A DNA stretch of 64,000 nt from an archaeon (GCA_043817075.1 JBDRHG010000023.1:11315-75314); one strand, 5' to 3'. Counted from the first letter of the stretch, positions 32,771 through 48,406 are shown. Translations and numbers: made by a program. The notes: a model not told the origin generated them from the letters alone.

Positions 32771-33109
32771 ATGCCAGAACATGATCCTCAAGCGGTCAAG
32801 CAGGAGTTCTCATCAGGTATGCGCCAGTTACGAGATTCGGTGATGCAACTCAATACCTTGCTCGAGCCCATGGCTGAGAAGAACATCTCGTCGCGAAATC
32901 CCCTGTTCGAGAAGAAGCTCGAGGTCCATAGGAGTCTTCTCGATCTCGTCCGGCAGCAGGAGGAACTGTCCGAGGGCATCATCGCTCTGCTCCAGGTCAT
33001 CGACGAATACGCGACCTCTCGTGTGCGGAGACCGCCTATGCCCCCTCCGCCCAGGCCGGCCAATAATCCATTCATCCTCGGCGAGGGAGCAACCCAAAAC
33101 TTTAAATAG
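32771..33109 (+). CDS. Hypothetical coiled-coil protein with proline-rich C-terminus
   Basis: 112 aa. A TATTTAAAC box lies 28 nt upstream of the ATG. It sits immediately upstream of the pilin-like cluster, and the cluster's TATA box is at its 3' end. Confidence 0.45.
   Translation: MPEHDPQAVKQEFSSGMRQLRDSVMQLNTLLEPMAEKNISSRNPLFEKKLEVHRSLLDLVRQQEELSEGIIALLQVIDEYATSRVRRPPMPPPPRPANNPFILGEGATQNFK
33100..33108 (+). promoter_or_regulatory. Putative TATA box (CTTTAAATA) of the pilin-like cluster
   Basis: ~60 nt upstream of ATG 33166. A GGTGAT Shine-Dalgarno-like element lies at 33154-33159. Confidence 0.4.
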
Positions 33110-33165
33110 TACAATAGTTATTGTCAGTTCGTTACGAAAATCGATAAAAAAAGCGGTGATTGTTG

Positions 33166-33738
33166 ATGATGTCCAAGAAGGCAGAAAAATCTCTCCAAAT
33201 GATATTCGGGCTCTTCATCCTTCTCATCATCTCTCTGGTGGTGCTGAGCCTTTTCTTCAAGTTCACTGAGAAATCCAGTTCGTCCATGGCCACGGCTTCG
33301 GACGAGTGGTTCTCCAAAGCGGCGATCGACAATGCCCAACAGGAATGTGAGGTGTTGTGCGAGAACATCAAGGATGTCAACACCGGCATCGAGTTCTGCA
33401 AACGGTATATGCGGATAGACTTCACTGGTGACAACCTCTTGGAGGATATGTACTCCTATGGTCAATGGGATATCTGTGAAGACAAGGTGCCGTGCTTCGT
33501 GCTCGTCGACAACTGCAAAGGTGGGACGTATGACGGCAACAAATGTCATGATCTGCTCGTTTCCCGACGGAATGACGCATACATAGCTCTCATCAATGAG
33601 ATGGACGTCGGGCAGGCTGATGCTGATGAAGGCACCTGTGGACTTGATGACGAGGATATCGCCATCACCAACAACTGGAAGATCAAGTTCGATTTCCTAG
33701 GTGGTGCCCTAATCGATCCGTATGCACCGATTCCCTAA
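33166..33738 (+). CDS. Cluster protein A: prepilin-like N-terminus, Cys-containing extracellular domain
   Basis: MMSKKAEKSLQMIFGLFILLIISLVVLSLFF (basic segment then hydrophobic helix). The ORF-track start at 33160 is TTG, and I prefer ATG 33166. SD-like GGTGAT upstream. Confidence 0.65.
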   Translation: MMSKKAEKSLQMIFGLFILLIISLVVLSLFFKFTEKSSSSMATASDEWFSKAAIDNAQQECEVLCENIKDVNTGIEFCKRYMRIDFTGDNLLEDMYSYGQWDICEDKVPCFVLVDNCKGGTYDGNKCHDLLVSRRNDAYIALINEMDVGQADADEGTCGLDDEDIAITNNWKIKFDFLGGALIDPYAPIP

Positions 33739-33753
33739 TTTTTTTTTCTTCTT

Positions 33754-35667
33754 ATGATTCCATCAAAACGGGCGGCGACCGTCATCAACATCGTGCTTCT
33801 TATCGCAGTCCTCGTCGTGTCCATCATCGTCATGTTCTCCCTGCAGAAGATATTCAACTGGCAGGCCCGCGCTGTCGAGACCGACACCGCATCCGCTATC
33901 GTCGAGATGATCCAGATCGAGATCGAGCGCGTGCTGCAGAAACGTGAGGACACGGATTTCTCCATCAGCATCCCTTACGCCGTAGACTACAAGGCCAACA
34001 TCTCACAGGGCAAGATCACCATGGAGTTCTTGGAGTCCGACATATCGGTCAAGAAGAATTTCATCATCCCCAACAGCCACGTGCTGCCGAGCGAATTCGA
34101 GAGCGCGGGCACGGTCCATATCTACAAGTTCGGCCGCACCATCCTCGTCACCAACAATCTCACCTGTGAGCCGCTCGACCAGCGATGCGATCCTGGCTGC
34201 GCGGTGTTAGGGATATGCGATCGGCAGTGCTACCGGGACAATACCGTCGACTTCGTGTGCAACCAGATATGCATCGACACCAATAATGACGGCAAGTCGG
34301 ACGGCAGGGATGCCGACGGCATCTGCGACCCCGACTGCTATGACAACGAAAAAGGCGGATTCTATTTCGACATCGATTGCATGCGGACAGACGACGGCAT
34401 CTGCGATCCTGACACCCATAATGTGCGGGATGGATTCTGCGACACCGATTGCGCCGGCACGAACGGCGTATGCGATGTGGACTGCACCGCTATCCTCGGC
34501 GCCTTCGATGCGGACTGCACCCATCGTCGCAACGGGGCATGCGAGACGCAGCTCGGCGAGAACTGCCTGTTCTATCCCGAGGATTGCGATTGCGGAGCCG
34601 GGCGGGCATGCAAGTACGGCTGCGCAAAGGACCCGCCCTATACCTTCGACCCGGATGGATGGGGTTGCGTGCCGGCGGCCGAGAATGTAGGCACCGGTCT
34701 GGAATGCGCTTCGTCCTGCCAATGCGGAGGGGACGACCGTTGCGACCATACCGGCCATTGCTGTCCTGAAGAGACATATTTCAACGGTGCAACGTGCGTG
34801 AGGTACGACAGCGACGGTACCTGCACTACGGATGATCCCTTGTTCCCGGCAGAGACCTGCCTGACGTCAACGATGGATTGCCTCTGCGCGACCGATCCGG
34901 ATAATCCGGTCTGCTGTCCAGGCGCAATCACCGGGACAAAGGACGGATGCGCACCGAAGATCGACGAAGGTGCATCGGCGGAGCCTTGTTGGTGCGACGG
35001 ACAATGCTCGGGCCAGGACAAATGTAAGAACAACCATTGTTGCGGTCCTGGATATATCTGGGATGACGTTGCCGGCGTTTGTGTGCTTGATCCAAGCGGC
35101 TGCGAGATACCTGAGCAGGCTCAGTTCCCTGGATGCAATTGTCAGAAGATGCCGAGCCTCTGTAGCGGTGGGCAGGTATGCTGTGCCTCAGGTCCGAACC
35201 TCAACGAGGATACCCTATGCTCCGACGGTTCCGGCAATAAGGGTACTGGTGAGGGTTGTGATTGCGGCACCGAGTGTTCGTCAGGCATCTGCTCACCTAT
35301 CCCCCGATATTCCCGTTGCGTGCCAACTCGTTGGTACCATTGCCGCGGGAGCGATTGCCAGCTGGAGTTCGTAGAGGACGTAACGATCAACATCGCGGAT
35401 CCCACGGCGTTCGGCCTCAACTGTGATGACCACAATACCTTGGACAATTTCGTGAGGAATGCCGCGGGCTATGAGGAGACCGATCCGATGACTGGTGCCG
35501 TCACACGGCCATACTCTGCGCTCGACGCTTGTCTCCCACTGAGTGACGGCATCATCTGCAATATCCAGAACACTGGTGGGGATATCTGCTATGCGACCCA
35601 AGGCAATCCTCTGAACCACTGGGAGCGTCATTTCCCCAATGATTGGGAGGTCAACTATTGGGATTAG
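33754..35667 (+). CDS. Cluster protein B: N-terminally anchored, extremely cysteine-rich surface protein (637 aa)
   Basis: N-terminal KRAATVINIVLLIAVLVVSIIVMF. About 62 Cys by my count. Repeated DG(I/V)CD(P/V/T)DC units and four C.C...C....CC(P/G) units. Confidence 0.75.
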   Translation: MIPSKRAATVINIVLLIAVLVVSIIVMFSLQKIFNWQARAVETDTASAIVEMIQIEIERVLQKREDTDFSISIPYAVDYKANISQGKITMEFLESDISVKKNFIIPNSHVLPSEFESAGTVHIYKFGRTILVTNNLTCEPLDQRCDPGCAVLGICDRQCYRDNTVDFVCNQICIDTNNDGKSDGRDADGICDPDCYDNEKGGFYFDIDCMRTDDGICDPDTHNVRDGFCDTDCAGTNGVCDVDCTAILGAFDADCTHRRNGACETQLGENCLFYPEDCDCGAGRACKYGCAKDPPYTFDPDGWGCVPAAENVGTGLECASSCQCGGDDRCDHTGHCCPEETYFNGATCVRYDSDGTCTTDDPLFPAETCLTSTMDCLCATDPDNPVCCPGAITGTKDGCAPKIDEGASAEPCWCDGQCSGQDKCKNNHCCGPGYIWDDVAGVCVLDPSGCEIPEQAQFPGCNCQKMPSLCSGGQVCCASGPNLNEDTLCSDGSGNKGTGEGCDCGTECSSGICSPIPRYSRCVPTRWYHCRGSDCQLEFVEDVTINIADPTAFGLNCDDHNTLDNFVRNAAGYEETDPMTGAVTRPYSALDACLPLSDGIICNIQNTGGDICYATQGNPLNHWERHFPNDWEVNYWD

Positions 35668-35676
35668 TGAGCACTC

Positions 35677-36270
35677 ATGAGACACACCCTCCTTTTGCTC
35701 GGAAGCTTTCTCATCCTCATCGCTACGGTCCACGCTCTCGGTTTCTGTGGGGACAACGATTGCGGTGGCACAGAATCATACTATTCTTGTCCGGATGATT
35801 GTCCGGAATCCGGCTGGGACCAGTCATGCAATCCTTCCAGGAATGGCGATTGCGATCCCGATTGCCGCGAGCGCGATCCTGACTGCAGGGAGTATCTCAT
35901 CGAGTCGGGCGCCATCCAGAAGGAAGAGCTCCCGCCATCCATGAGGCCGCCGAGCATCCAACGCGTGGTGTTATTCCTGCTCATGTTCACCATGATGGGT
36001 GTCTTTCTCTTCATCGTGGTGCATAAGATCAGGCACAAGGGACGGACGGAAGGCAGCCCTCGTCAGCCTGTGCAACCGCCGCCGTCTCAGCCACCTCTGC
36101 AGCAGATCGAGCAGCAGTACGTCCAGCAATACGCACAGCAGTATGCACGGCAATATTCTCAGAACCAGGCTGGACAATACAATAATCGACCGCAACCTCA
36201 GCAGCAACCTTTTCAACCGCCCCCTCAACAGCCCCAACGACCCCAACAGCAATGGAGGCAGAACCCATGA
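35677..36270 (+). CDS. Cluster protein C: signal peptide, CGDxxCG...CPDDC Cys module, TM helix, Q/P/Y-rich tail
   Basis: MRHTLLLLGSFLILIATVHA signal. FCGDNDCGGTESYYSCPDDC...GDCDPDCRERDPDC. TM VVLFLLMFTMMGVFLFIVV. Tail QQIEQQYVQQYAQQYARQYSQNQ...PQQQPFQPPPQQPQRPQQQ. Confidence 0.7.
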   Translation: MRHTLLLLGSFLILIATVHALGFCGDNDCGGTESYYSCPDDCPESGWDQSCNPSRNGDCDPDCRERDPDCREYLIESGAIQKEELPPSMRPPSIQRVVLFLLMFTMMGVFLFIVVHKIRHKGRTEGSPRQPVQPPPSQPPLQQIEQQYVQQYAQQYARQYSQNQAGQYNNRPQPQQQPFQPPPQQPQRPQQQWRQNP

Positions 36271-37028
36271 TCTGGACCAAGAAGGGTTCGACGTCGCTGA
36301 CCACCAAGACGCTCTACGCGGTCTTCCTCGTCATCTTCCTCTCTTTCATCGCGTTTACCGTGGTCAACTCCAGGTCGTCGGTCCTGTCACAGAAAGAATT
36401 CTTCGATTCCCATAGGCATGTCGACAATTTCTTCGCCGCGCTCCTGACCAGTCCCTGTACTGTCCAGGAGCATTATCCTGTCATCGATGGCCGGACGAGC
36501 GACCGAAACTACCAGATCGAGACCGAGGGCTATCTCATGGTGGACAAGCTGACCTATCTCGACAAGGAGAACAAGGACATCTATTGCGTCGACAGCTACC
36601 ATTTCCTCTATACGGTCATCATCGAGGACCTCATGAACAAGAAGGAATGGGTGTTGGGGCTCCGTGGTGAGCCGAACTGGGCCTATGGCGACCAGGGGAC
36701 GCATGTGATCTCCCGGTCTTACCCGGTCGCGCTCAACTATAATTTCGCTGAGATCCATCCTGGATATGCCACCATATATGCCTATGTCGGAGACATCCCG
36801 CGGCTGTACGGCACCATCAAGATGGCCTGCGTCGCCCGTGATCAGCGGTCATTGTCGCTCGATCTGCCAGTGGATATCAAGTTCACGACCGAATATGGGG
36901 AATTCTGCATAGGCGCGGAATGCTTCTTCGCTTTCTTTCCCTGCAGGGTGAAGGAATTCTCCATCCCTGCTGGAGAAAGGCTCGTTCTCATCACACCGAA
37001 GGATGACGGCGTCGAGGTGATGGTCTGA
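36267..37028 (+). CDS. Cluster protein D: prepilin-like N-terminus
   Basis: MIWTKKGSTSLTTKTLYAVFLVIFLSFIAF. I chose ATG 36267, which forms an ATGA overlap with the stop of protein C and has GGAGG 8 nt upstream. Confidence 0.7.
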   Translation: MIWTKKGSTSLTTKTLYAVFLVIFLSFIAFTVVNSRSSVLSQKEFFDSHRHVDNFFAALLTSPCTVQEHYPVIDGRTSDRNYQIETEGYLMVDKLTYLDKENKDIYCVDSYHFLYTVIIEDLMNKKEWVLGLRGEPNWAYGDQGTHVISRSYPVALNYNFAEIHPGYATIYAYVGDIPRLYGTIKMACVARDQRSLSLDLPVDIKFTTEYGEFCIGAECFFAFFPCRVKEFSIPAGERLVLITPKDDGVEVMV

Positions 37029-37516
37029 TGAAGAAGGCCCAGATGCAAGAATTCATAGGTATCGTCCTCCTGATCCTCGCACTCGTCATGTTCGTCATGT
37101 TCGATCGCGTCAGCTCGACGGATTCAGCCCTCTCGAGGGCTGAGAGTATAGCGGAAGGGCGTGGAAGAGGGAATATCTGGGCAGGAGCCAATATCATGCT
37201 CTATTCCACGTTGGAGGGTGTCATGCTCATCAATCTGCTTGGAGACCATGTCTGCAAGAATGTGACCGAGGTGACTTATGGTAGGAATAGAAACATTAAT
37301 ATATCCAATTTTCTCATGACGGTATTAACTGCCTATTACGGGGAAGGACACTGGTCTTTCGAGCTCCGCTCGGTGAACGGGACCAAGTGCTATAATCCTG
37401 GGCTCTTCCATCGCTCATGCGCCTTCCCCGACGAGCTCGATTACAGGGCATACGACATTACACATCCAATGCCCTGCACAAGAAGCTTTGGAGAGGGGAC
37501 GCTCTATGTCTATTAA
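37028..37516 (+). CDS. Cluster protein E: prepilin-like N-terminus
   Basis: MKKAQMQEFIGIVLLILALVMFVMF. Its ATG overlaps the preceding stop (TGATG). Confidence 0.7.
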   Translation: MKKAQMQEFIGIVLLILALVMFVMFDRVSSTDSALSRAESIAEGRGRGNIWAGANIMLYSTLEGVMLINLLGDHVCKNVTEVTYGRNRNINISNFLMTVLTAYYGEGHWSFELRSVNGTKCYNPGLFHRSCAFPDELDYRAYDITHPMPCTRSFGEGTLYVY

Positions 37517-39371
37517 AAAAAGAGGACAGATGTTTACCTTGATTTTCTTTATTGCCATCATCATCGGCATATTCGTGCTGGTGCAATACACACGACAGGA
37601 CTACGAGGTCCAGTTGCAGGACGGTCAGACGGCTGAAGAAGCCGCCCGTCTCGTGCTGGATTCTGTGATCAACGCTCTCAAGGGCGAGGTCACTGCCGTG
37701 TTGCGGGACTCGGCTGAGCAGGCCGTGTTCGATTCGGCTGCCGCAGCCATCGATGCTGAGAACGGTTATCTCGTATCGTATGGTCTGAGCTCTATGCCTC
37801 CTTTGGCTGAGGCCAAGGACAACCTTGAGGCGCGCACGCTCGATTATTGCAATGCGTGGTTGTCTGACCTCAACGGCAAGGAGCTCAACGGCGCGGTGAT
37901 CGAATCCGAGGGGACGCTCTCACAGATCACTGTATGGGTCGACGAGCTCGACCTGGTGAGCGGCGACCGTGACGAGGCCTTCAATATCAGCGGAGAGGCA
38001 GCGACCGGTCCCATCATCGCGGTGGAGCCGTCGGTCGTCGAGATGAATGTGGATGATGAGTTCACCTTCGACATCACGTTGAACAATGTGGAAGGCGCCA
38101 ACGTCGCATTCTATGTGCTCACCTATGATCCTGCCAAGCTGCAGATCGTCAACCCTGCTCTGGACATATCGGAAGGATTGTTCTTCAAGGAAGCCGGTTC
38201 GACCACCACTTTTACCCCTTATAGTGAAGCGGTGGGTAAATATGAGATCCTGCTCGCCATGATGGATGAGACCTCCGGAGCTTCCGGCAAGGGCAACATC
38301 ACCACCATCAAGTTCAAGGCGCTCGAGCTGGGTGAGACCTACATCACCATCGAGTCCGGCAGGGTCGGCCTCAACACGGACCAGGTCTTCAACACGGAAG
38401 ACAATTCGCTCAGCGTCAACAGGGCCCAAGTCGTCATCAAGGACGGCGAGCTCGCCGATCCGGTCTATCCCAAATACGGTGAGGCAGGCAAGCTGACCAG
38501 CAGTTTCGAGATCACCTCTGGCAACGGTCAGGGTCTCAGAGAGGAAGTGGAAGTCCCCTACTCCTTCACCACCCAAGTCCAGGGTCTTCGCTATTGGTAT
38601 GTGTATCGACACCTGTACGGATGGGTCCAGCAGGACGTCATCTCTGAGAAGACCTGCGCCCACATGCCTATCGTCAAGGGCAATGCCTCCAATGAGCCGG
38701 ACAATCCGACTCCTGGATGGCTCGAATGCTATGCGCCCGGCATGACCGACGAAGTGGTCGATACGATCGTCGACGAGAGCATGGCTGATCTCATGGCAAG
38801 AATGGACGGCGACGTCCAATGCACTTGGGACATCCCCTGCAGGTTCGTCGAGACTGAATTCATCTGGAAGGATCCTTGCGAAGGCGAGGATGTCGACTAC
38901 GCCACATGCGTGGGTTGGCCTTGCCAGGCCTACGAATCGAATGACAGCTGCTTTGCCGGCGGTTGCAGGACTGATGAGAACTGTGAGGCCTATGGAGATT
39001 ATGGTAGTCCGGGTTGCCAGGACCCCAAACCGATTAACTACACTGGTCAATACGTGAGGAAGACCGGGACACCGGTCATCGCCAATAACTACCATCCCTC
39101 GGGATCGATCACGTATTCGGAGAAGCACCATATCCGTTTCCTCGTCGATGTCCAATGCGTCGACAGGGCCAGTGTGGACACCAATCTGGGTGAGTTGACC
39201 TGGGATTTCAAGCTGCATGTGTCCATGGACAGAGGCGATGAGCCTGACGATCCGCCATGCCCCTGCGAAATCGGTGGCGGCGGTGGCGGTGGTACTGCGC
39301 CTGAGCCTGAAGACCCAGATAATGATAACAGCGACAACACGCAGTCAAAGACCAAGACTACAACCAATTAG
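37506..39371 (+). CDS. Cluster protein F: prepilin-like N-terminus plus cohesin-like module
   Basis: MSIKKRGQMFTLIFFIAIIIGIFVLV (ATG 37506; the ORF-track start 37488 is TTG). The segment IIAVEPSVVEMNVDDEFTFDITLNNVEGANVAFYVLTYDPAKLQIV...GKGNITTIKFKALELGETYITIESGRV follows the cohesin pattern. C-terminal Cys-rich part and a G7 tract. Confidence 0.7.
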   Translation: MSIKKRGQMFTLIFFIAIIIGIFVLVQYTRQDYEVQLQDGQTAEEAARLVLDSVINALKGEVTAVLRDSAEQAVFDSAAAAIDAENGYLVSYGLSSMPPLAEAKDNLEARTLDYCNAWLSDLNGKELNGAVIESEGTLSQITVWVDELDLVSGDRDEAFNISGEAATGPIIAVEPSVVEMNVDDEFTFDITLNNVEGANVAFYVLTYDPAKLQIVNPALDISEGLFFKEAGSTTTFTPYSEAVGKYEILLAMMDETSGASGKGNITTIKFKALELGETYITIESGRVGLNTDQVFNTEDNSLSVNRAQVVIKDGELADPVYPKYGEAGKLTSSFEITSGNGQGLREEVEVPYSFTTQVQGLRYWYVYRHLYGWVQQDVISEKTCAHMPIVKGNASNEPDNPTPGWLECYAPGMTDEVVDTIVDESMADLMARMDGDVQCTWDIPCRFVETEFIWKDPCEGEDVDYATCVGWPCQAYESNDSCFAGGCRTDENCEAYGDYGSPGCQDPKPINYTGQYVRKTGTPVIANNYHPSGSITYSEKHHIRFLVDVQCVDRASVDTNLGELTWDFKLHVSMDRGDEPDDPPCPCEIGGGGGGGTAPEPEDPDNDNSDNTQSKTKTTTN

Positions 39372-39420
39372 GCCCTCAGGGCCATTTTTTATCTTTCTTT
39401 TCCTTCTCTCTTTTTGCAAA

Positions 39421-39430
39421 CCTTTAAATA
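39421..39430 (+). promoter_or_regulatory. Putative internal TATA box (CCTTTAAATA) before the FlaJ/TadC-like gene
   Basis: Lies in the 83-nt gap after protein F, which also holds T-rich runs (CCATTTTTTATCTTTCTTTTCC). Centred ~29 nt upstream of ATG 39455. Confidence 0.4.
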
Positions 39431-39454
39431 GCCACCTTGCGGGAAAACAGTCAG

Positions 39455-41620
39455 ATGGTCGACGGTTACGGTAACATCTCGGACATCGAAAAAGAGGTGG
39501 CGGCAAAGCTCCGGTCCATGGAGACCGATGGGACCAACGAGCTCGATATCTTCTCTGGCTCATACAAAGAGTTCAAGGAGGAGGAGCGAAAGGAGTATGC
39601 CCTAAATACCTTCTTCGAGCGCTACTGCAAGTTCGCTTCTGGCTACCTCAACTTCTTCAAGCTCAAGGACAAGACCAAAGAGGAGATGCAAGAGAGCATC
39701 GACATCGCCGGATTCACCCGCATCACACCTGAGGATGTGTTGGCATCGAGCGTGTTCACCTTGATCGCAGGACTCTTCCTGGCGTTGCCCTTCTTCATCA
39801 TGTCTTTCCGAGACTTCTCCTATTTCCTTGTCGCCAGCGGCATGTTCATGGCATATGCCGGATTCTCCTATCCCGCTTTCTTCGCCCAGATCACCAAGAT
39901 GAAGGCGCAAGAGGAATCGATCCTGGCCATCCTCTACATCACTATCTACATGCGGGTCAGTCCGGTGTTGGAGAACGGCATGTATTTCGCCATCCAGCAT
40001 CTCAACGGGCCTTTGGGCAAGGACATCAAGGCCATGCTCTGGATGCTGGACATGGGAAAAGCGTCTTCTGTGGAGACTGCCATGAAGCCTTTCATGGACT
40101 TATGGATCAAGCGTAATCCCGACTTCGTCAAGGCCTTCTTGACCCTTCACTCTGTTCTCGACCAGGACAGCGAAGCGGAGCGCGAGAAGATCCTGGAGAA
40201 GTCGTTGCACACCATCCTGGACAACACCTTCATCAAGATGAAGCACTATTCGCATGACCTCAAGACGCCGGTACTGCTGCTGCACACCTTCGGGATGATG
40301 CTGCCGCTGATCGGACTCATCGCTTTCCCCATGGTCAGCGTGTTCATGTCCGACTCCATCAGGATCGAATACCTCTTCTTCGGCTACATCGTGGTGCTGC
40401 CATTATTGCTCTTCTTCCTGACCAAGCGCATCCTTGCCAAACGTCCGGGCGCGTTCTCCTTTCCAGACCTCAAGGAGAATCCCTATCTCCCTCCTGAAGG
40501 GATGTACATGCTCACCTTCAACAACAAGCGGTACTATATCCCTGTGTTCAGGGTCGCGATCGCCATCGGCATCATCATCATGCTGCCTGGGATCGCTTGG
40601 GTGATCACCCACACCATCCCGGAGACCATGATGGTCATGCAGCAGGCCGCCGACGTAGGTATGCAGGGCGTCGGCCAGATAGCAGCAGAAGGCGAATACA
40701 CATTCGTCGCGATGATGTTCACTCTGCTCATCCCGCTCGGGCTCGCGCTCACGTTCTCCATATACTTCTACTTCCGAAGCATCCAACGGCTAAGGGTGAG
40801 GAATTCCATCGTAGAGATCGAAGAGGACCTCGATGAGGCGCTGTTCCAGCTCGGCCAACAGTTCACTGACGAGGTGCCCATAGAGATTGGACTGCAGAAC
40901 TATATCCGAGACGCTCAGATGCTCAACCTCAAGCAACGTAGCATCTTCCATTTCTTCAAGCTGACCATGGACCGTATCCAGGAAGAGGGGGTGACGTTCT
41001 CCAACGCCGTGTTCGACAAGACCAATGGCATCATCATCCGATACCCGTCGATCCTGATGCAGGAGATCATGTGGATCGTGGTGGAGGGCACCAAGAAAGG
41101 CGCCAAGACGCTGTACACAATCATGACCAAGATCAGCGTCTACCTCAACAACACCAAGAAGATCAAAGAGCTCATCTACGACCTGCTCACCGAGACCGTA
41201 TCCTCCATCAATGTCCAGGCGAAGTTCTTCTCGCCCTTCCTGTCCGCCATCGTAGGAAGCCTTACGTTCATCATCGTCCAGGTGCTCTGGCAGATGGCGA
41301 AACGGTTGGAGAACATCATGAAGATCCTCAACTTCGGGTCGGGAGACGACACGTCGTTCTTCTCCGACCTCATCAACTTCACCCGCATCATCCCGCCCAC
41401 TGTCTTCCAGATATTGGTCGGCATCTATCTCGTCGAGACCGTGATGCTGCTCTCTGTGCTCGCCAGCGGAGTGGAGAGCGGATTCGACAAGGTGAATAGG
41501 GACGTGACCATTGGGAAGAACCTATTGTATGCCATCATCACCTATATGGTGCTCACCATCATGGGCATCATCGCACTGCAGGGACTCATAGAGAGCGGCA
41601 TCGCATCGACAGGAGCGTGA
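39455..41620 (+). CDS. Cluster protein G: polytopic membrane protein, FlaJ/TadC/T2SS-F-like platform (tentative)
   Basis: 721 aa from ATG 39455 (the ORF-track start 39437 is TTG). It contains two copies of a soluble helical segment followed by TM helices. The segments GPLGKDIKAMLWMLDMGKASSVETAMKPF and EEDLDEALFQLGQQFTDEVPIEIGLQNYI resemble the T2SS-F repeat. This is assigned by pattern only. Confidence 0.5.
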   Translation: MVDGYGNISDIEKEVAAKLRSMETDGTNELDIFSGSYKEFKEEERKEYALNTFFERYCKFASGYLNFFKLKDKTKEEMQESIDIAGFTRITPEDVLASSVFTLIAGLFLALPFFIMSFRDFSYFLVASGMFMAYAGFSYPAFFAQITKMKAQEESILAILYITIYMRVSPVLENGMYFAIQHLNGPLGKDIKAMLWMLDMGKASSVETAMKPFMDLWIKRNPDFVKAFLTLHSVLDQDSEAEREKILEKSLHTILDNTFIKMKHYSHDLKTPVLLLHTFGMMLPLIGLIAFPMVSVFMSDSIRIEYLFFGYIVVLPLLLFFLTKRILAKRPGAFSFPDLKENPYLPPEGMYMLTFNNKRYYIPVFRVAIAIGIIIMLPGIAWVITHTIPETMMVMQQAADVGMQGVGQIAAEGEYTFVAMMFTLLIPLGLALTFSIYFYFRSIQRLRVRNSIVEIEEDLDEALFQLGQQFTDEVPIEIGLQNYIRDAQMLNLKQRSIFHFFKLTMDRIQEEGVTFSNAVFDKTNGIIIRYPSILMQEIMWIVVEGTKKGAKTLYTIMTKISVYLNNTKKIKELIYDLLTETVSSINVQAKFFSPFLSAIVGSLTFIIVQVLWQMAKRLENIMKILNFGSGDDTSFFSDLINFTRIIPPTVFQILVGIYLVETVMLLSVLASGVESGFDKVNRDVTIGKNLLYAIITYMVLTIMGIIALQGLIESGIASTGA

Positions 41621-41991
41621 AGAGAATCGAAACTGGAATATTCAGGTACGGCATGATCCTTCTCGGCTTCATCATGGCCGGGCTCCTGATAGCATTCGCC
41701 CTCAAGGCGTCCTACACCATCGACATCGACATCGACCATCGGGAACAGCATGTCGAGGGCGACTCTGAGACGATCATTACGGTGATACCTAAGTTGTGTG
41801 ATGCCTGCATGAGCAAGAGAGATGTGGACAGGGACTGCTATCTCCTGTACGCGACCATCACCGACGGTCAGATAACGGCTGATGATCTCAGTATATACAA
41901 TATGGAAGACCTCGATGTGCCCGGGGCCGGAAATTATATATTCAAGATACAATCAGAAGAGAACAACTGCACGGTGAGGCAAATTGGCTAG
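41617..41991 (+). CDS. Cluster protein H: small prepilin-like protein
   Basis: GTG start in a GTGA overlap with the stop of G. (V)KRIETGIFRYGMILLGFIMAGLLIAFAL. Its C-terminal Cys pattern is related to I/J/L. Confidence 0.55.
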   Translation: MKRIETGIFRYGMILLGFIMAGLLIAFALKASYTIDIDIDHREQHVEGDSETIITVIPKLCDACMSKRDVDRDCYLLYATITDGQITADDLSIYNMEDLDVPGAGNYIFKIQSEENNCTVRQIG

Positions 41992-42931
41992 GAAAAGACG
42001 CAACAAGAAGGAAGGAGACATCGCGATCAACACCATCTTCGTCATATTCGTCGCGGCGATCAGCATCCTGTTGCTCATCGCGCTGTTCGCAGGCAAACTG
42101 CCGACGTTCGCCAAGACCATCTATTGCAAGACCTTCTTCCGCATCCAGTCATCGACGTATTTCCCTGAAGCCATCCGCGTGGACACCGATTTCTGCGCCT
42201 CGGAAGGGCGTATGGGAAGCCATTACATTTTCAAGCAGGAAGATGTGCTGCGGGAATTCTCTGACGGGCAACAGGTGTTCAGGCACCAAGGAAGTGGTGT
42301 GGATGGTTATCTTTCAGCTCCGTTGACCGTTCCGAACAGCGAGATCCTCGACGCGACCGCTGAGGTGGTGGTTCTGGAATCGATCGGATTGGGTGATCCA
42401 GTCACCCTCAGCTTCAACGTGGGGGACCGCACAATCCCACCACGTTCTATCCTAGCATTCCCTGTGAACGAACCTATACGGGTGAACTTCGCCACTTTCC
42501 TCGAAACAGCCATGGCTGCATGCACAGGTCCTGAATGCGAGTTCGACCTAAATTTCTGGTATGGATCAACCAATCCAGCATATGGGATCCGTTACGCGGT
42601 CCAGAATCTTGAGATCACCTATGAGCGCTGCTTCGTAAAGGAGGAAATCATCGCGGGTATGTTGGCCTGCTATGAGAAGGCCTCCTACGGCGAGCGCAGA
42701 ACGAGCCTCATCTGCGACGAGCTCACGCTCGATCCTAGCTGTGAGGAAAGCTATCCGATCACAGATGCTACGGTGGCGACGACGCTTTGGGAGAACGGTC
42801 TCTGCGAGGTCCTCACGAATGGCGATGTTTGTCTCGGGGACAATGTGGATTTCGAGCTGGACGAGGTCACGAAACGCACCAATGTCCTGATTGAATATAT
42901 AGGCGATACGCGCCATATCCGGGTGAGCTAA
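41984..42931 (+). CDS. Cluster protein I: prepilin-like N-terminus plus shared C-terminal module
   Basis: TTG start with GGTGAGG 5 nt upstream and no in-frame ATG before the TM. ARKRRNKKEGDIAINTIFVIFVAAISILLLIALF. Ends ...TNVLIEYIGDTRHIRVS. Confidence 0.65.
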   Translation: MARKRRNKKEGDIAINTIFVIFVAAISILLLIALFAGKLPTFAKTIYCKTFFRIQSSTYFPEAIRVDTDFCASEGRMGSHYIFKQEDVLREFSDGQQVFRHQGSGVDGYLSAPLTVPNSEILDATAEVVVLESIGLGDPVTLSFNVGDRTIPPRSILAFPVNEPIRVNFATFLETAMAACTGPECEFDLNFWYGSTNPAYGIRYAVQNLEITYERCFVKEEIIAGMLACYEKASYGERRTSLICDELTLDPSCEESYPITDATVATTLWENGLCEVLTNGDVCLGDNVDFELDEVTKRTNVLIEYIGDTRHIRVS

Positions 42932-42947
42932 GATCAAGAAAGGAGAC

Positions 42948-45005
42948 ATGTCCATACAATTCATCGCGGCGATACTCATCACTATAGTCGGCATCACCTT
43001 AGCGCTAGGGAGCGGGCTCCGCTACATGAGCTCAGACAATGTCTACTGCGACACCTATTACAAGGTCAAGGGCGGCCTCTGGGCCAACAAGCGAGATGTG
43101 AACTGCGCACAGAACGTCAGGCTCGGCATCTTGAGCATCGAGATGCTCCAGGAACAGCAGAAACTCTTCGCCTCCAATGTCCCGGAAATGTCGTTCGATT
43201 TCCGGGAGGCCGATTCTTACACGTTCGACTTCTCTGTCCCTGGAGGTTCACTCATCACCGAGGCGGTGATAGGCATCGAGCTGCAGAAGGCGAAGATACA
43301 GAACTTCTCCACACCCAATGTCAACAATGTGCCCAGCGACATCCTCAACTTCCCCCGTGAAGGCGGGGAGCGGACCATGACAGTACGGGTACCGAAAGAT
43401 GCCCATATCACCAATGCCAAGATGCGGCTGACCGGCGTCGATATCCCTGGCATGGCAGACATCGTGTTCATCATCGACACCTCCGGAAGCATGACCGATG
43501 AATGGGCCTCGGTCTGCACCGCTATCGGAGAAGTGGCCGAAGCAGTAAGTGAGACCACAGACCTCGTGGTATGGGTCTATTCCCTTGCCGATAACGGCAA
43601 GAACTGTCCGCTGATAGACGGTATCCAGATGCATAATGCGGATCTTGACCAGAACCTTCTTGGAAGATATTGGGGTGAATGGTGTATAGGAGGCAACCCT
43701 GATTGCGTGTTCGTCAACATACCAGAATATGTGGAAGACATGGTTCCCCATGACCTATACAAGGAGGCCTGGGGGATAGGGACTTATTACATCATCCGGC
43801 AGCGACCTGGTCTGCGGGATAATTCCAAGATCATCCTCGTCCCCGTCTCGGACTCTGATCCGACGGGTGGTGGCGCATTGGATGACTATCTGTTGATCAC
43901 TGATTCTTGGCAAGGTATAGGTCCTTGGGGTCCGGAGGGAATCTTCCGAGGAACAGAGCAACGCGTCATCGACATGATCAGAGGGGATCCTCCTACCATC
44001 ACAGGAGTCCTGACTCCATACGATTATATCTTTCCTGTCTATGGGAATCTCGTCAACCGCAACAAGCCTGAGCCGGATCCCTATGAAGGCTATGAGGTGG
44101 GTTATTCGCGGGCTGACTGTTTCGCATCGCATCCGCGTTGTGCCCAGGTGCTCACCTGGATGGATCAGTTGGCCGATGCGTCTGGGGGAACGGTCAGCGG
44201 GTATACCGACACTGCTTTGCTCATCCAGGCTGTGCAGACCGCCATCAACACGTCTTACCCTGAGGATCTCCGAGGTGATATCGATGGCTTCGAATTCTTC
44301 TTCCATGCCGACGAGCTCAACCGGACCAATTCACCCATCTTCGCTGAGTTCTGGAAACAGCTGGATTTAGCCCTTGATGTTTGCATACCCGACGGGAATG
44401 GCTGGTGCGACCTTGAGATCACTTTCTACTCCTCGAACGAGGGGAGTCTTGCCATCGATAGTCTCATCATAGAATACGTGCTTCCTATCGATGAGGTGAC
44501 CGTCCGTCTTAACGGAGTCGATTTCCGTGCTGGACCGATAGGTGTCGATGATGAGGTATTCGTCGACTTCACGGACCTTCTCCGGAGGATGATCAATGAG
44601 ACCTGCGATGTGAGAGAGTGTCCGGTGGAGCTTTCTATCCGGACGACTAACTACGAATCCCTTCTCAAGGTCACAGACCTTTCTGTTGACTACGATCTCT
44701 ACCTGTTGGAGGAGACCTTGGTTTCACGTATCTTCGACTGCTGGGACAAGGCGTCCCGTGGTCAGTCCCGCAAAGACATCCTGTGTGAGGAGTTCGTCGT
44801 GCCGCATGACTACAAATTCATCGAGCCCATCACCGAGGCGAGGCTGACATCCATCATCCTAGACAGGAACAGCTGTCATATCATCCCAAACGAGCCGCAT
44901 GGTTGCGGTCGAGGGGATACTTTTGACATGACGAAAGATATAAATAGCGTCACCAACATTTTGATAGAATACGACACCGACGCAAAACGCATCATCGTAA
45001 GCTGA
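42948..45005 (+). CDS. Cluster protein J: N-terminal anchor, vWA (MIDAS) domain, shared C-terminal module
   Basis: MSIQFIAAILITIVGITLALG. MIDAS motif DIVFIIDTSGSMTDEW. Ends ...TNILIEYDTDAKRIIVS. AAGGAGA Shine-Dalgarno upstream. Confidence 0.75.
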   Translation: MSIQFIAAILITIVGITLALGSGLRYMSSDNVYCDTYYKVKGGLWANKRDVNCAQNVRLGILSIEMLQEQQKLFASNVPEMSFDFREADSYTFDFSVPGGSLITEAVIGIELQKAKIQNFSTPNVNNVPSDILNFPREGGERTMTVRVPKDAHITNAKMRLTGVDIPGMADIVFIIDTSGSMTDEWASVCTAIGEVAEAVSETTDLVVWVYSLADNGKNCPLIDGIQMHNADLDQNLLGRYWGEWCIGGNPDCVFVNIPEYVEDMVPHDLYKEAWGIGTYYIIRQRPGLRDNSKIILVPVSDSDPTGGGALDDYLLITDSWQGIGPWGPEGIFRGTEQRVIDMIRGDPPTITGVLTPYDYIFPVYGNLVNRNKPEPDPYEGYEVGYSRADCFASHPRCAQVLTWMDQLADASGGTVSGYTDTALLIQAVQTAINTSYPEDLRGDIDGFEFFFHADELNRTNSPIFAEFWKQLDLALDVCIPDGNGWCDLEITFYSSNEGSLAIDSLIIEYVLPIDEVTVRLNGVDFRAGPIGVDDEVFVDFTDLLRRMINETCDVRECPVELSIRTTNYESLLKVTDLSVDYDLYLLEETLVSRIFDCWDKASRGQSRKDILCEEFVVPHDYKFIEPITEARLTSIILDRNSCHIIPNEPHGCGRGDTFDMTKDINSVTNILIEYDTDAKRIIVS

Positions 45006-45008
45006 AAA

Positions 45009-45524
45009 ATGACATTCGTGGTCACGAACAACAAGGTCTTCAAGGAGTTCAATACCTTGAAGGGTGCTGTCGCATTCCTCGAGAAATCCAACGAATTCGG
45101 GCTGCGTATCGCCGAGCGTGACGCATTCGGCAACCTTGCCGACGTCGACGAGAGCGCAGTCGCTGAGGTGCGTGAGGAGGTCAAGGCCCAGATCATGGCC
45201 GCGCAAGAGGCCGAGGAGATAGAGGGTGTGGTCAGTCCGCCGAAAACCATTCCGGCGGCAACAGGCACAGCAGCGGTCGGGGTGACAGGAACAGCTCCAG
45301 GACAACCTGTCCCTCAGACAGGAGCCGCTGCTTCGACCGCTGTACCTGCATCCACAAAACCTGTTCCAGAGAAGCAGGAAGAGAAGACGCCCGTGGACAA
45401 GCCTACGCTCTTCATCAAACTCGGAGCCTTGGCCGTGATCGGTACCATATTGGTCGTGGTGTTCCTCCGTATCGTGCTTCCTATCATCATCGATTTCATG
45501 CGGACATGGAGGTCGATCCCATGA
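45009..45524 (+). CDS. Cluster protein K: small soluble N-domain, P/T/A-rich linker, C-terminal TM (tail-anchored)
   Basis: MTFVVTNNKVFKEFNTLKGAVAFLEK...; linker PAATGTAAVGVTGTAPGQPVPQTGAAAS; TM LGALAVIGTILVVVFLRIVLPIII. Confidence 0.6.
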   Translation: MTFVVTNNKVFKEFNTLKGAVAFLEKSNEFGLRIAERDAFGNLADVDESAVAEVREEVKAQIMAAQEAEEIEGVVSPPKTIPAATGTAAVGVTGTAPGQPVPQTGAAASTAVPASTKPVPEKQEEKTPVDKPTLFIKLGALAVIGTILVVVFLRIVLPIIIDFMRTWRSIP

Positions 45525-45985
45525 CAGCAAAAAGAGGAAACCTGGGTATAAACTACATCTTCGCTATATTCGTCTCGCTCATCGTCGTGTTCGTCATCAT
45601 CGCCTTGGTGTCGAACTGGGCCTTCGACGCCAACAAGCTCTTCGCCAAGATCTTCCCCAGCGAAGACGACAGCAACCTCCTGGACCGGCAGATCATCGAA
45701 GTCCCTCCCGCTGACTGCGACCGGCTTGAGAGCGAAGTGGCAAAGCACGGTAAGATATGCTACACCAAGGCCCGTCAGGGCAAGGTCGAGGGAACGGACT
45801 GGGCGTTGTGCTATGGTATCGTCAGCGATTGCCCCGCTTCCGCTGGACAGACCTATGCGGGAGTCGAGACGCTCTTGGGTGACACCCTCGCAACGGATGA
45901 GATGGACATCCAGAGCACGGGTCGCCTCTCCAACAATGTCCTCGTAGGCTATGATTATAGCGAGAAACGGGTCACGATCAGTTAG
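45521..45985 (+). CDS. Cluster protein L: prepilin-like N-terminus plus shared C-terminal module
   Basis: ATG 45521 in an ATGA overlap with the stop of K and GGAGG 8 nt upstream. MTAKRGNLGINYIFAIFVSLIVVFVIIAL. Ends ...NNVLVGYDYSEKRVTIS. Confidence 0.65.
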   Translation: MTAKRGNLGINYIFAIFVSLIVVFVIIALVSNWAFDANKLFAKIFPSEDDSNLLDRQIIEVPPADCDRLESEVAKHGKICYTKARQGKVEGTDWALCYGIVSDCPASAGQTYAGVETLLGDTLATDEMDIQSTGRLSNNVLVGYDYSEKRVTIS

Positions 45986-46498
45986 GTGGTATCTATCGAC
46001 AAGAAAGGCACGGAATCGGTCGAAGTGTGGATGTGGGTCATCGCAGGCATGGTGATAGGCAGCCTTATCTTCGTCGGCGGCTTCAAGCTGCTCACCAACT
46101 ATGTGCAGTCCGCCGAGAGCAACCAGGCGAATGAGAACGTCAATATGCTCTACTCCATGATTACCCAAGTCTGTTTCGGTGGTCGCGGGGAACGTGAGAT
46201 CGATTCGTTGCGTTTCCCGTCCATGATCGAGAAGATCTATATTGAGGACGAAGAGGGTATCGAGAACTTAGGGAAGAACCTCTGCTACGATCCTGTCGAC
46301 GACACACCGAATTGCATGGACCTCAAGGCCTGCACTGTCATGATGAACTCCATCTCCACCAAGGAGAAGCGAGGCGTGTTCTATGCGGTGGAGAAGTTCC
46401 TCGGCAAGCGACGTCCGCAGCAGTTCCGCTTCAGGGTACAGAAGAAGAGCGTAGATGTCGTCGAGGTCAATTGGACCCGGGAACTGCTCAAGGACTGA
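45986..46498 (+). CDS. Cluster protein M: prepilin-like N-terminus
   Basis: GTG start immediately after the stop of L. (V)VSIDKKGTESVEVWMWVIAGMVIGSLIFVGGF. Confidence 0.6.
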   Translation: MVSIDKKGTESVEVWMWVIAGMVIGSLIFVGGFKLLTNYVQSAESNQANENVNMLYSMITQVCFGGRGEREIDSLRFPSMIEKIYIEDEEGIENLGKNLCYDPVDDTPNCMDLKACTVMMNSISTKEKRGVFYAVEKFLGKRRPQQFRFRVQKKSVDVVEVNWTRELLKD

Positions 46499-46501
46499 TC
46501 A

Positions 46502-48406
46502 TCACAGTTGCTGAAGCGGCCTAGAATTGATGTAAGAGTAGATGCGCACCATCTTGATCTTCGGTGGCTTCTTGTCCTTCTTGTTCTCCTTGCAGGTCTT
46601 CATCGCTTGCGCGATCCCTGCCTGGAGGTCGGTGCCGTCATAATAGAATGCCTCAGGCCTCGATCCATGCTCATCGAAGAACTCTTCCCAGAACATGAGC
46701 TGGGTTTTGGGTGCGACGATGATGCCACGATCGATAGGGATGTCTAAGGTGGCATTCTTCTCGAACCGTTTGGCGTCCTTGAGCAGGGCGTCATAGTTCT
46801 CCCTGATCTCTTTTATCGTGCTGACGAATTCTTCCATGGTCATGCGCTGCATCTCTTCGAGGTAGTCCTTCTCGCTCTTGTTGTCTGGGTCATCGAAGAA
46901 CATCTTCTGGTCCCGGAAGAAGAGGTGGTTGGACAACGAAGTGAAGAACCGCTGTTCTGTGAGGAATTTGACGATGTCGAAGGAGAGCTTGTTGGCGACG
47001 TTGAACGTGCCTGACTCCTCCTTGATCCACCGTTTCGTGAAATCATCCTCGATGTGGTGCTTCGCGGTCACATCCCATTTGATCTCGAACCGGCTATTGA
47101 GCTTCTTCGCGTCCTCGAACCAGCGCTTGAATGTGAAACGGATGTTCCGGATCAGCTCGCCGCAATGCCGTCTGGTCTGCTCGACCTCCTTGATGAATGC
47201 GCTCTGGTCCGGCGCGCGGTCGAAGATGAGGAGATCGCCTGTGGTGAAATCTTCTATCTGGAAATAGCGCCCTTTCATGACGCTCTCCACCGGGAAGAGG
47301 ATGCATACCGCGTTCTTCGGATCTATCTTGGTCCTGTCGACGGTATTGATCCGGTAGGGGATGCATGCGAGATCGTCGTGATGGGAACCGATGACAAGCT
47401 CCTTCTTGTTGACCCTCCCTGTCTCTTTCGAGATCATGCCTTTTCTGATGATGGCTTTCATCTCGTTCGGATTGGCAGGATACGTCGCGTAGTTGCCTGA
47501 TGGGAAAGTCAGGACGGGCAAGATGAATTGGTGGAGGAACCATTTGGACCGCTTGGTGTTCTCCTGTTCCTGGTCCTCGAGCCAGTATACCTGGCGGATG
47601 CGTTCGTCCTCTTCTGCTAACTGGAGTTTGTGGTAGTATTCGCGAACGACGTCCAGCACCTGGGTCTTCTCTTTCTGTACGCTCTCGGATAACGCTGCTA
47701 TCCTCTGATGGATGGCTGTGCTGTTCCTCTTCGCTTTGGCCGGGTCAGTGATGAGACTTTTTATGATGGAGAGATCGGTCTCCTGCGATCCTACGATGCC
47801 GTCCAGTGGTTGGAGGCCGAGGAGAAGCTGAGACAATGCGGTCATGGTCTCGCCGTCCACTTCGATGATCTTGTCGAGGCGTTTTTCCACCTCCTGGATG
47901 CCGGCGACGCCTTTGCCGATGAAGGTCTCGAGGCCGATGGCGTCCTGTTGGTCCTTGGGCAGCATCTTCTTCATCGCGGAGATGACCTGCTCTGCGTGCT
48001 TGTCGTTCTTAATCTCCATCTTCTCTAGCGTCGTTCCTTCCTGGCCTTCTTTGACCAGGCTCTGGATCTTGGTGCGGAACCTCGTTGCGGTATCCTTGAT
48101 GCGGGAATTCAGGTTGGATATCGCGGTGAGGCAATCCTTGGCCCTGCGGAGATCATCTTCGGTGGGACTGGGGTCCTGGAGTGCCTGGGCAAGTCCTGCG
48201 AGAGACTTGGCCTTGGCCTGCTCGATGCTCGCGCAGCCGTCCTTTCCTAGGACCTCTTTGGAGAATGAGTTGATATCGAGGAGATGCTGGCGGTCGACCT
48301 TTGTCGAAACCTGTTCATCCTGTTCTCTGGCGGCCTCCTGATCCTCATCTTTGAGAAGCTCGTGGACCCACTGAGGGATCTTCTCTTTAGGCATACAGGT
48401 CGTCAA
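46502..48406 (-). CDS. Hypothetical protein (634 aa, soluble, coiled-coil-rich N-half)
   Basis: Long ORF convergent with the cluster, with stop codons 3 nt apart. I can see no P-loop or other catalytic motif. The start may be M5 (48394), given a TTTTTTATAC box. Confidence 0.6.
   Translation of the reverse strand: MTTCMPKEKIPQWVHELLKDEDQEAAREQDEQVSTKVDRQHLLDINSFSKEVLGKDGCASIEQAKAKSLAGLAQALQDPSPTEDDLRRAKDCLTAISNLNSRIKDTATRFRTKIQSLVKEGQEGTTLEKMEIKNDKHAEQVISAMKKMLPKDQQDAIGLETFIGKGVAGIQEVEKRLDKIIEVDGETMTALSQLLLGLQPLDGIVGSQETDLSIIKSLITDPAKAKRNSTAIHQRIAALSESVQKEKTQVLDVVREYYHKLQLAEEDERIRQVYWLEDQEQENTKRSKWFLHQFILPVLTFPSGNYATYPANPNEMKAIIRKGMISKETGRVNKKELVIGSHHDDLACIPYRINTVDRTKIDPKNAVCILFPVESVMKGRYFQIEDFTTGDLLIFDRAPDQSAFIKEVEQTRRHCGELIRNIRFTFKRWFEDAKKLNSRFEIKWDVTAKHHIEDDFTKRWIKEESGTFNVANKLSFDIVKFLTEQRFFTSLSNHLFFRDQKMFFDDPDNKSEKDYLEEMQRMTMEEFVSTIKEIRENYDALLKDAKRFEKNATLDIPIDRGIIVAPKTQLMFWEEFFDEHGSRPEAFYYDGTDLQAGIAQAMKTCKENKKDKKPPKIKMVRIYSYINSRPLQQL

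Follow-up and report, generated by a model that had tools for sequence, protein, structure and literature searches.

A 64,000-nucleotide (nt) stretch of archaeal DNA (GCA_043817075.1, JBDRHG010000023.1:11315-75314; hereafter the window, with positions counted from its first letter) carries an operon of 13 open reading frames (ORFs), named A to M, all on the + strand at 33166-46498. We conclude, with a probability of roughly 0.68, that this locus supplies the platform, together with a set of subunits and adhesins, of a woesearchaeal type IV filament that is used for attachment and whose ATPase and A24 prepilin peptidase are encoded elsewhere. The evidence for this reading comes from the gene set, its synteny, the family to which the membrane protein G belongs, the domain content of the other products, and the linkage of ATPase and peptidase genes to the same gene set in relatives. 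The window derives from a Woesearchaeota/DPANN metagenome-assembled genome (MAG), its source being a small symbiotic-type archaeon, and the closest homologues of G are all found in Woesearchaeota/Nanoarchaeota MAGs. The operon was compared with 88 loci of relatives, labelled L001-L088, in which gene presence was assessed by tblastn. Its genes are as follows (aa, amino acids; TM, transmembrane):

33166-33738, + strand: A, pilin-like protein, 190 aa, 8 Cys; 58 homologues, all from Woesearchaeota/Nanoarchaeota
33754-35667, + strand: B, 637 aa, KRA-ATVIN followed by a hydrophobic helix and a 62-Cys acidic ectodomain with CDxDC-type repeats; orthologues in L005, L013, L019 and L021
35677-36270, + strand: C, 197 aa, Sec-type signal, Cys-rich ectodomain, TM segment and Q/P-rich cytoplasmic tail; orthologues in L005, L014, L015, L021 and L088
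36267-37028, + strand: D, pilin-like or N-anchored protein, 253 aa, KKG-STSLT followed by a helix; alternative start at 36252; orthologues 28-35% identical
37028-37516, + strand: E, pilin-like protein, 162 aa, KKA-QMQEF; orthologues have K[KG]A-QS[SA]EF
37506-39371, + strand: F, modular pilin-like protein, 621 aa, KRG-QMF followed by a helix; central cohesin module at residues 175-291
39455-41620, + strand: G, predicted polytopic platform protein, 721 aa; divergent two-domain member of the T2SSF (TadC/FlaJ/PilC) superfamily
41617-41991, + strand: H, N-anchored or pilin-like protein, 124 aa; follows G in nearly every related locus
41984-42931, + strand: I, pilin-like protein, 315 aa, KEG-DIAIN followed by a helix, C-terminal Cys module; follows H in relatives, in short and long forms
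42933-45005, + strand: J, modular pilin-like protein, about 685-690 aa, von Willebrand factor A (vWA) module with metal ion-dependent adhesion site (MIDAS) and the C-terminal module common to I, J and L; start at ATG 42948 or ATC 42933
45009-45524, + strand: K, tail-anchored protein, 171 aa, soluble N-terminal domain, A/P/T-rich linker and C-terminal TM segment; orthologues in L005, L018 and L020
45521-45985, + strand: L, pilin-like protein, 154 aa, KRG-NLGIN followed by a helix; resembles the short form of I; alternative start at 45506
45986-46498, + strand: M, pilin-like protein, 170 aa, KKG-TESVEVWMW; orthologues 27-45% identical

Organization and conservation of the operon

Re-reading of the ORFs and their junctions upheld the layout described in an earlier reading made from the DNA alone (the sequence-only reading), namely 13 tightly coupled + strand ORFs, three of which (H, I and M) need the non-ATG starts GTG 41617, TTG 41984 and GTG 45986, respectively. 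Short spacers occur at the A/B (15 nt), B/C (9 nt), I/J (16 nt) and J/K (3 nt) junctions, and L and M abut directly (0 nt). Overlaps consist of ATGA at C/D and K/L, GTGA at G/H, the single shared nucleotide of TGATG at D/E, 11 nt at E/F and 8 nt at H/I. The sole real gap in the operon is the 83 nt between F and G (39372-39454). NCBI gene calls agree with this layout (A, ABIC95_06325; G, ABIC95_06355; six consecutive tags), and the call for A, which starts at 33166 and encodes 190 aa, corrects the sequence-only reading. The F/G gap had also led to the suggestion of two transcription units, and this proved well founded, based on the following features:

33101-33108, + strand: TTTAAATA box, putative archaeal promoter of unit A-F, given as 68 nt before A
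39371-39393, + strand: terminator-like hairpin GGCCCTCAGGGCC followed by a T-run at the end of unit A-F, the sole strong one on the + strand in the region
39423-39430, + strand: TTTAAATA box, putative promoter of unit G-M, with its 3' end 24 nt and its start 32 nt upstream of the G ATG

Because the F/G gap contains both a hairpin and a box, a second box precedes A, and the motif TTTAWATA is enriched in the window (12 observed vs 0.66 expected), the division into units A-F and G-M is well supported.

Another Woesearchaeota genome (L005/L016) is colinear over the full operon; there, A-I are followed by an extra I/J paralogue and then by J, K, L and M. Partial colinearity was seen in about 12 further genomes, and large portions of the operon recur in L014, L015, L017, L018, L020, L021 and L088. 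This colinearity indicates, at the level of sequence comparison, that A-M are genuine genes under selection which form a conserved module and are not chance ORFs. An origin in a mobile element or virus was considered and rejected, as the operon has an even GC content along its length and is flanked by archaeal housekeeping genes, such as those for Topo VI B, a Toprim-domain protein and a KH protein.

G is a divergent relative of type IV filament platform proteins

The sequence-only reading had likened G to the T2SS-F/FlaJ/TadC platform proteins, and this assignment was supported through relatives of G and through a local GspF-like fold, not through a direct profile match. A total of 48 full-length homologues were found, and PF00482 matched 5 of 42 (best E-value 8.7e-8). 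The matched stretches lie at approximately residues 170-301 and 470-576, so that both halves of the protein are covered, which reflects the two-domain layout of PilC/GspF/FlaJ. G also aligns over 93-97% of its length with DPANN proteins of about 715 aa (27-34% identity, E 1e-71 to 1e-125). A profile of the G family retrieved 1354 representative clusters; when ten distant members were tested, PF00482 was matched by six, three of them above the gathering score, and Spore_III_AB by two.

An AlphaFold2 (AF2) model of G, with a predicted local distance difference test score (pLDDT) of 82.5, is all-helical and features two cytoplasmic helical bundles and approximately nine TM helices, a number that was also obtained from a Kyte-Doolittle scan. 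Foldseek analysis of this model yielded no significant global match for the whole chain; its matches were local and GspF-like, with SpoIIIAB at a probability of 0.98 (a GspF-like fold) and PilC in the type IVa pilus model 3jc8 at 0.47. On the combined evidence of profiles and predicted structure, G is identified as a very divergent two-domain T2SSF-type platform.

ATPase and prepilin peptidase genes are linked to the gene set in relatives

A gene-neighbourhood search for G orthologues, which the sequence-only reading had proposed, revealed conserved loci in which the missing partners of a platform protein are encoded. In L004, L006/L012, L013 and L023, the genes G-H-I are followed by a convergent gene for a PF00437 ATPase of 765-772 aa, which lies about 1 kb from G in relatives of the same G clade as the window (L004, L006, L013 and L023). 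In L004, F, J, L, M, a homologue of a 634-aa protein that adjoins the operon in the window (see below), A, G, H, I, the ATPase gene, the two coiled-coil genes x152 and x248 and three genes for membrane proteins of about 190 aa occupy approximately 17 kb; L006, L013 and L023 have a similar arrangement. Beyond these relatives, a G homologue is encoded directly after the ATPase in about 50 Pace-, Woese-, Aenigm-, Nanohalo- and Nanoarchaeota loci, with the gene order x192-x191-x203 / x248-x152 / ATPase / G homologue. The ATPase of about 765 aa is 65-75% identical across very many Woesearchaeota and is therefore under strong constraint.

Downstream of G homologues, we also identified a polytopic protein with QD(I/L)(R/K)KRE and GGGD motifs that belongs to the Peptidase_A24 family (Pfam E-values 7.7e-14, 1.3e-13 and 4.9e-11). 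In L021, which has a window-type operon, the PF01478 peptidase gene is located on the same strand about 150 nt after M (L021:14621-15547). In 17 further loci, many of them from Pace-/Woesearchaeota, an A24 gene closes arrays of small genes, located downstream of the ATPase and platform genes, whose products have [KR][KR]G leaders (for example, L041:17849-18673 and L046:16089-16934). The four core functions of type IV filament (TFF) systems are thus genetically linked to this gene set in relatives.

Sequence comparison also suggests rapid evolution of the platform in the lineage that gained A-F and H-M, since identity between G proteins falls to about 28% between the window type and the ATPase-adjacent type, while the ATPase stays at 65-75%. 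L032 is apparently intermediate: its G is 34% identical, and an A-like gene lies downstream.

The surroundings of the ATPase gene show further regularities. In about 40 cluster-2 DPANN loci (including L004:16066-19380, L006, L007, L013, L023, L024 and L030), the ATPase of about 765 aa is flanked by two coiled-coil proteins of about 150 and 250 aa, and by three paralogous multi-TM proteins of about 190 aa with a conserved (F/I)xILEKTK(L/I)xGE motif. These loci of ATPase and coiled-coil genes are probably the 'CCP' loci of Hamm et al. (2024). In L004, a gene for an Rce1-like/CPBP intramembrane protease (L004:980-1834) is positioned about 430 nt upstream of the F-J-L-M block and was not seen in the window.

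Pilin-like proteins with conserved N-terminal leaders

The sequence-only reading had singled out ten products (A, B, D, E, F, H, I, J, L and M) that begin with a basic segment and a single hydrophobic helix, and all ten were retained: a Kyte-Doolittle scan found one N-terminal helix each in A, B, D, E, F, H, I and J, and inspection of the L and M sequences showed the same layout. In the orthologues of A, B, D, I, J, L and M, the helix is preceded by [KR][KR][G/A]-x-x-[S/T]-x-[N/Q/E], and in E and F orthologues by [KR][G/A]-Q/S directly before the helix; a [KR][KR][GA]-type leader is thus conserved across the orthologues of nine families. The M family is particularly informative, as seven of ten orthologues are leaderless and start exactly with M-E-S/T-V-E, in register with KKG|T-E-S-V-E in the window and KKG|Q-E-S-V-E in L013. 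This is the start position that cleavage after the Gly residue predicts. Based on these sequences, processing of the N-termini as class III signals is likely. The predicted mature N-termini of M and E (Q/x-x-S-x-E-like) resemble the QxSxE motif that is found in Epd-type pilins.

Among these proteins, A is the strongest candidate for a main subunit of the filament or for a core partner of G. In its alignment, column identity reaches 88% over residues 8-35, which comprise the end of the leader and the helix, vs 43-57% elsewhere, and such stronger conservation of the helix than of the head is the usual pilin pattern. An AF2 model (pLDDT 83) predicts a 61-residue helix (residues 6-66) and a small Cys-rich α/β head. 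The gene adjoins G in L001, L004, L010, L011, L022 and L088, and lies less than 2 kb from G in L013.

Modular and accessory proteins

Cohesin-like, vWA, Cys-rich, tail-anchored and Q/P-tail modules had been noted in the sequence-only reading as unusual for archaeal pili, and each was recovered here, with the count of Cys residues in B now set at 62 and with a weak Pfam match for the vWA module. B has no match in Pfam or among PDB sequences (phmmer). Its Cys-rich part is related to that of C, which is a Sec-type type I membrane protein. The cohesin of F scores above threshold (Pfam Cohesin, 1.9e-10, 41.5 bits), and F orthologues retain their N- and C-terminal parts but exchange the middle module, which is Hint-like in L005 (L005:8180-9982). 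For F and J, phmmer searches against the PDB returned nothing.

An N-terminal helix is common to I, J and L, as is a C-terminal Cys module that ends in ...NILIEY....V.VS, and residues 47-315 of I match residues 419-685 of J at 2e-14. The Pfam VWA match of J is below threshold (E 0.011 over 36 residues), yet its DxSxS and SDSDPTG motifs are conserved in five of seven orthologues, with L017 and L018 carrying a different insert at this position. The start of J may be ATC 42933, one nt after the I stop codon, which would restore the KKGD leader of its orthologues from the in-frame sequence AKIKKGD that follows the stop (42924-42950), although ATG 42948 has a good AGGAG upstream. The swapped modules of F and J might serve as host-specificity cassettes.

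One further gene bears on the cohesin module of F:

31483-32127, - strand: dockerin protein, 214 aa, N-terminal basic segment and TM segment, three Ca-loop repeats (Pfam Dockerin_1, above threshold, 5.4e-13, 49.4 bits)

This gene lies about 1 kb upstream of A and encodes the sole dockerin-loop protein in the window. A pairing between the F cohesin and this protein is plausible from their domain content and would be specific to this genome, because tblastn found no counterpart of the dockerin gene in the 88 loci.

A proposed mechanism and its alternatives

In our model, G would act as the polytopic platform, and A, D, E, H, L and M as small pilin-like subunits. B, F, I and J would be modular pilin-like proteins whose N-terminal helix inserts into the filament or its tip, with the 62-Cys domain of B, the cohesin of F and the vWA/MIDAS module of J as the displayed adhesive modules, and C, K and the convergent 634-aa protein probably have accessory roles in the membrane or cytoplasm. 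Precursors would enter the membrane by their N-terminal helix, and an A24 peptidase supplied from elsewhere would cut off the short [KR][KR][G/A] leader. The T2SSE ATPase of about 765 aa, likewise from elsewhere, would then drive G, such that subunits are extracted from the membrane and polymerised into a pilus or a short pseudopilus, and the filament would present its adhesins for attachment to host cells or surfaces. Leader cleavage, filament formation, adhesion and cohesin-dockerin pairing are predictions of this scheme.

A number of results weigh against this model. The filament is a prediction from the genes, and G itself gave nothing meaningful in Pfam, NCBIfam and PDB-sequence searches (phmmer; family-profile hmmsearch). 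Alignment of the N- and C-terminal halves of G with hhalign, which would reveal the internal duplication of T2SSF proteins, was not significant (E 0.12); the two soluble-helical-plus-TM repeats proposed in the sequence-only reading stand as two bundles in the structural model but not as detectably related halves. Foldseek comparison of the A model with the PDB produced zero matches, and the modelled head of A is not the β-sandwich typical of archaeal pilins. A Pfam search of the 52-residue N-termini at E-values up to 10 found no class III, N_methyl or pilin model, and two of the ten N-termini (B and I) pass a strict FlaFind-type pattern applied by eye. Furthermore, similar KG-polar-TM N-termini are present in unrelated window proteins, a peptidyl-prolyl isomerase (PPIase) and the dockerin protein, and the [KR][KR][GA]-helix motif on its own is therefore weakly specific. 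The earlier assignment of class III rather than Sec signals is thus favoured by the conserved [KR][KR][G/A] leaders and the register of the M orthologues, but the Pfam models and, for eight of the ten N-termini, the strict pattern do not bear it out. Many of these observations would suit a static surface or adhesion complex (an envelope scaffold or an attachment patch) instead of a polymerised filament, in which A-F and H-M are uncleaved N-anchored (type II) proteins and G is a membrane hub: eight of the ten N-termini fail the strict pattern, the same layout exists outside the operon, the head of A is not a known pilin fold, and C and K are clearly no pilins. Such a complex is nevertheless unlikely, given that A24 leader peptidase genes belong to the L021 operon and close the homologous arrays of 17 loci, that leaderless M orthologues begin in register with the predicted cleavage site, that the 88% conservation of the A TM helix would be unusual for a passive anchor, and that the gene set sits beside a T2SSE ATPase gene in four relatives.

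The many differing minor-pilin-like genes with no obviously dominant major pilin, together with a bulky and divergent platform, could also be explained by a device resembling a type II secretion system (T2SS), whose short pseudopilus would push or present dockerin-bearing or Cys-rich cargo across the S-layer in place of a long adhesive pilus; the F cohesin and the neighbouring dockerin gene would then point to cargo docking. We consider this distinctly improbable, as no secretin-like or S-layer pore component was identified, related loci have no counterpart of the dockerin gene, and the large proteins themselves carry a pilin-like N-terminus, which makes them subunits rather than free cargo. 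A further difficulty for the filament model is that neither tblastn search, for the T2SSE ATPase with its companion genes (x152 and x248) or for the A24 peptidase, gave a hit in the 64-kb window; Pfam likewise found no A24 domain among its polytopic ORFs, and the only Walker A proteins it encodes are ABCE1 and one ABC ATPase. The sequence-only reading had reported this absence for a shorter interval, and in its strong version it envisaged an apparatus built on an orphan platform that functions independently of a FlaI/PilB-type motor or prepilin peptidase. The absence does extend to the full 64 kb, and L005/L016, L017, L018 and L021 also have no ATPase gene within the available flank of about 5-10 kb on each side of G. 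However, it is not a property of the system, because the ATPase gene is found 1 kb away in four relatives of the same G clade and is strongly constrained across Woesearchaeota, and a peptidase gene lies within the L021 operon; we therefore give very little credence to an ATPase-independent apparatus. Judged from the loci of these relatives, the ATPase and the peptidase are displaced and not absent from the system, their absence from the window reflects where the genes are placed in this genome, and both are presumably encoded elsewhere in it. The type IV filament thus offers the preferred explanation of the operon.

Neighbouring genes and other features of the window

Two additional ORFs border the operon:

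46502-48406, - strand: convergent cytoplasmic coiled-coil protein, 634 aa, without a P-loop; conserved neighbour of the gene set
32771-33109, + strand: 112-aa ORF, predicted helical with a Pro-rich tail, between the KH gene and A, with the TATA box of A at its 3' end

Homologues of the 634-aa protein adjoin M, A or G in L004, L009, L010, L020 and L088. Pfam and PDB (phmmer) searches with this protein gave no match, and neither did Pfam searches with three orthologues. The possibility that it is a degenerate ATPase was rejected, as it lacks a Walker A motif and does not resemble the T2SSE ATPase in sequence. No homologue of the 112-aa ORF was present in the 88 loci. A 284-aa ORF antisense to K, L and M (45314-46168, - strand) is almost certainly spurious, because the + strand genes that it overlaps have conserved orthologues.

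Two patches of low GC content, 24001-26000 (0.38) and 48001-50000 (0.42), stand out from the rest of the window (about 0.54) and may be acquired DNA. The second of these holds a DUF3800 gene (48578-49405) directly after the convergent 634-aa gene. The window also encodes a homologue of Lit (lipoprotein intramolecular transacylase; PF07314, 1.6e-29) at 20409-21173 on the + strand of this archaeal DNA, and proteins with bacterial-style lipobox-like N-termini (..LIGC, ..LAGC and ..ISAC) are encoded near it, at 22051-22812, 16146-16715 and 8065-8472. A different DPANN MAG has a gene for a giant surface protein (L008:1-539; more than 3000 aa, cadherin and Big_9 repeats) at a distance of about 10 kb from the ATPase-platform pair.

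Relationship to known systems

Conserved type IV pilus-like loci with a CpaF-like ATPase, a TadC-like platform and coiled-coil proteins have been described in cluster-2 DPANN archaea (Hamm et al. 2024, PMC11291902), and 'dark matter islands' of DPANN genomes encode FlaI, TadC and diverged pilins (Makarova, Wolf & Koonin 2019, PMC6393860). The gene order of the roughly 50 loci above fits both descriptions. The operon is tied to these loci in several ways: G is a full-length homologue (27-34% identity, E about 1e-80 to 1e-125) of the platform of about 715 aa that follows the ATPase of about 765 aa, and the ATPase and two coiled-coil genes are found beside G-H-I in relatives of the window. Those loci also have an A24 peptidase along with arrays of small [KR][KR]G-leader proteins. 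In contrast, the platform of the window is uncoupled from the ATPase and only about 28% identical to its counterparts, compared with about 66% for the ATPases, and the other 12 families (A-F and H-M) have no detectable homologues in the ancestral-type loci. The loci of Hamm et al. (2024) are defined by an ATPase, a platform and coiled-coil proteins encoded together; the window has the platform homology only, and in L004 the two sets are contiguous. Neither of these two papers describes operon A-M or its vWA, cohesin and Cys-rich modules, we found no description of the operon architecture in the literature searched, and two recent Nanobdellota papers do not mention pili.

Similarities to better characterised filaments are more distant. 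Epd or 'system 1' archaeal type IV pili and other TFF classes (Makarova 2016; Sivabalasarma & Albers 2026 preprint, 10.64898/2026.04.22.720090) likewise combine an ATPase, a platform, an A24 peptidase and many diverse pilins with leaders that end in [KR][G/A]. Unlike these systems, A-M match no pilin or class III model in Pfam or NCBIfam, the platform is a single protein of about 720 aa and not the product of two platform genes, the subunit heads are Cys-rich, with that of A not β-sandwich-like, and the accessory genes are unrelated. The bacterial Tad/Flp pilus (TadA ATPase, TadB/TadC platform, TadV peptidase and TadE/F pseudopilins) resembles the system in its PF00482 platform, its many small pilin-like proteins and the adhesive role proposed here, and one relative of G is labelled 'Flp pilus assembly protein TadB' by JGI; however, G is a fused two-domain protein of 721 aa and not two proteins of about 300 aa, and a Flp-type G/xxxxEY pilin, a secretin, TadZ and TadG are all missing. 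For the archaellum, Pfam and NCBIfam scans of A-M provided no archaellin or Fla-family match.

The closest functional parallel for the modular proteins may be PilB of Streptococcus sanguinis, a modular type IV pilin with a vWA/MIDAS module that has been proven to act as an adhesin; in bacteria, adhesion by modular vWA pilins is well established (PMC8179133). By analogy, J would combine a pilin-like N-terminus with a vWA module that has a conserved DxSxS motif, and F and B would carry a grafted cohesin and a Cys-rich domain in a comparable manner. J is nevertheless archaeal and has no sequence relationship to PilB, and its vWA module is placed between the N-terminal part and the C-terminal Cys module shared with I and L.

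Given the ATPase and peptidase linkage in relatives and the roughly 50 DPANN loci with an ATPase followed by a G homologue, the locus is a lineage-specific elaboration of DPANN type IV pilus-like loci that had previously been described only coarsely. The uncharacterised surface filament or adhesion apparatus envisaged in the sequence-only reading is accordingly retained as a type IV filament-like set, but the kind of system was already known in outline from the two DPANN studies. What looks undescribed is the fast-evolved platform uncoupled from its ATPase, the Cys-rich and non-canonical A, families A-F and H-M, the modular vWA, cohesin and 62-Cys proteins, and the 634-aa partner.

Implications for attachment in Woesearchaeota

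DPANN archaea are generally regarded as living in attachment to a host cell. To our knowledge, Woesearchaeota have no cultivated, imaged representative, and their mode of attachment is not known. The operon provides a parts list for a likely attachment filament, consisting of the platform G, the candidate main subunit A, the adhesins B, F and J, the paralogous module of I, J and L, and the 634-aa partner. It also provides a caution for genome surveys, as TFF finders that require a co-located ATPase, platform and peptidase would miss such a system. A more far-reaching possibility is that Woesearchaeota rebuilt a DPANN-wide filament machine into a host-attachment organelle, with a fast-evolved, ATPase-uncoupled platform, a disulfide-rich, non-canonical pilin A and interchangeable modular adhesins (vWA, Hint-like, cohesin and 62-Cys) that would tip or decorate the filament, among which F recruits the dockerin protein in this genome. 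We regard this as a rather doubtful but specific proposal; if true, it would represent the first cohesin-dockerin scaffold on a type IV filament, in an archaeal episymbiont. Comparison between genomes makes visible which parts are constant and which are swapped, and such swapping is the pattern expected of host-range determinants.

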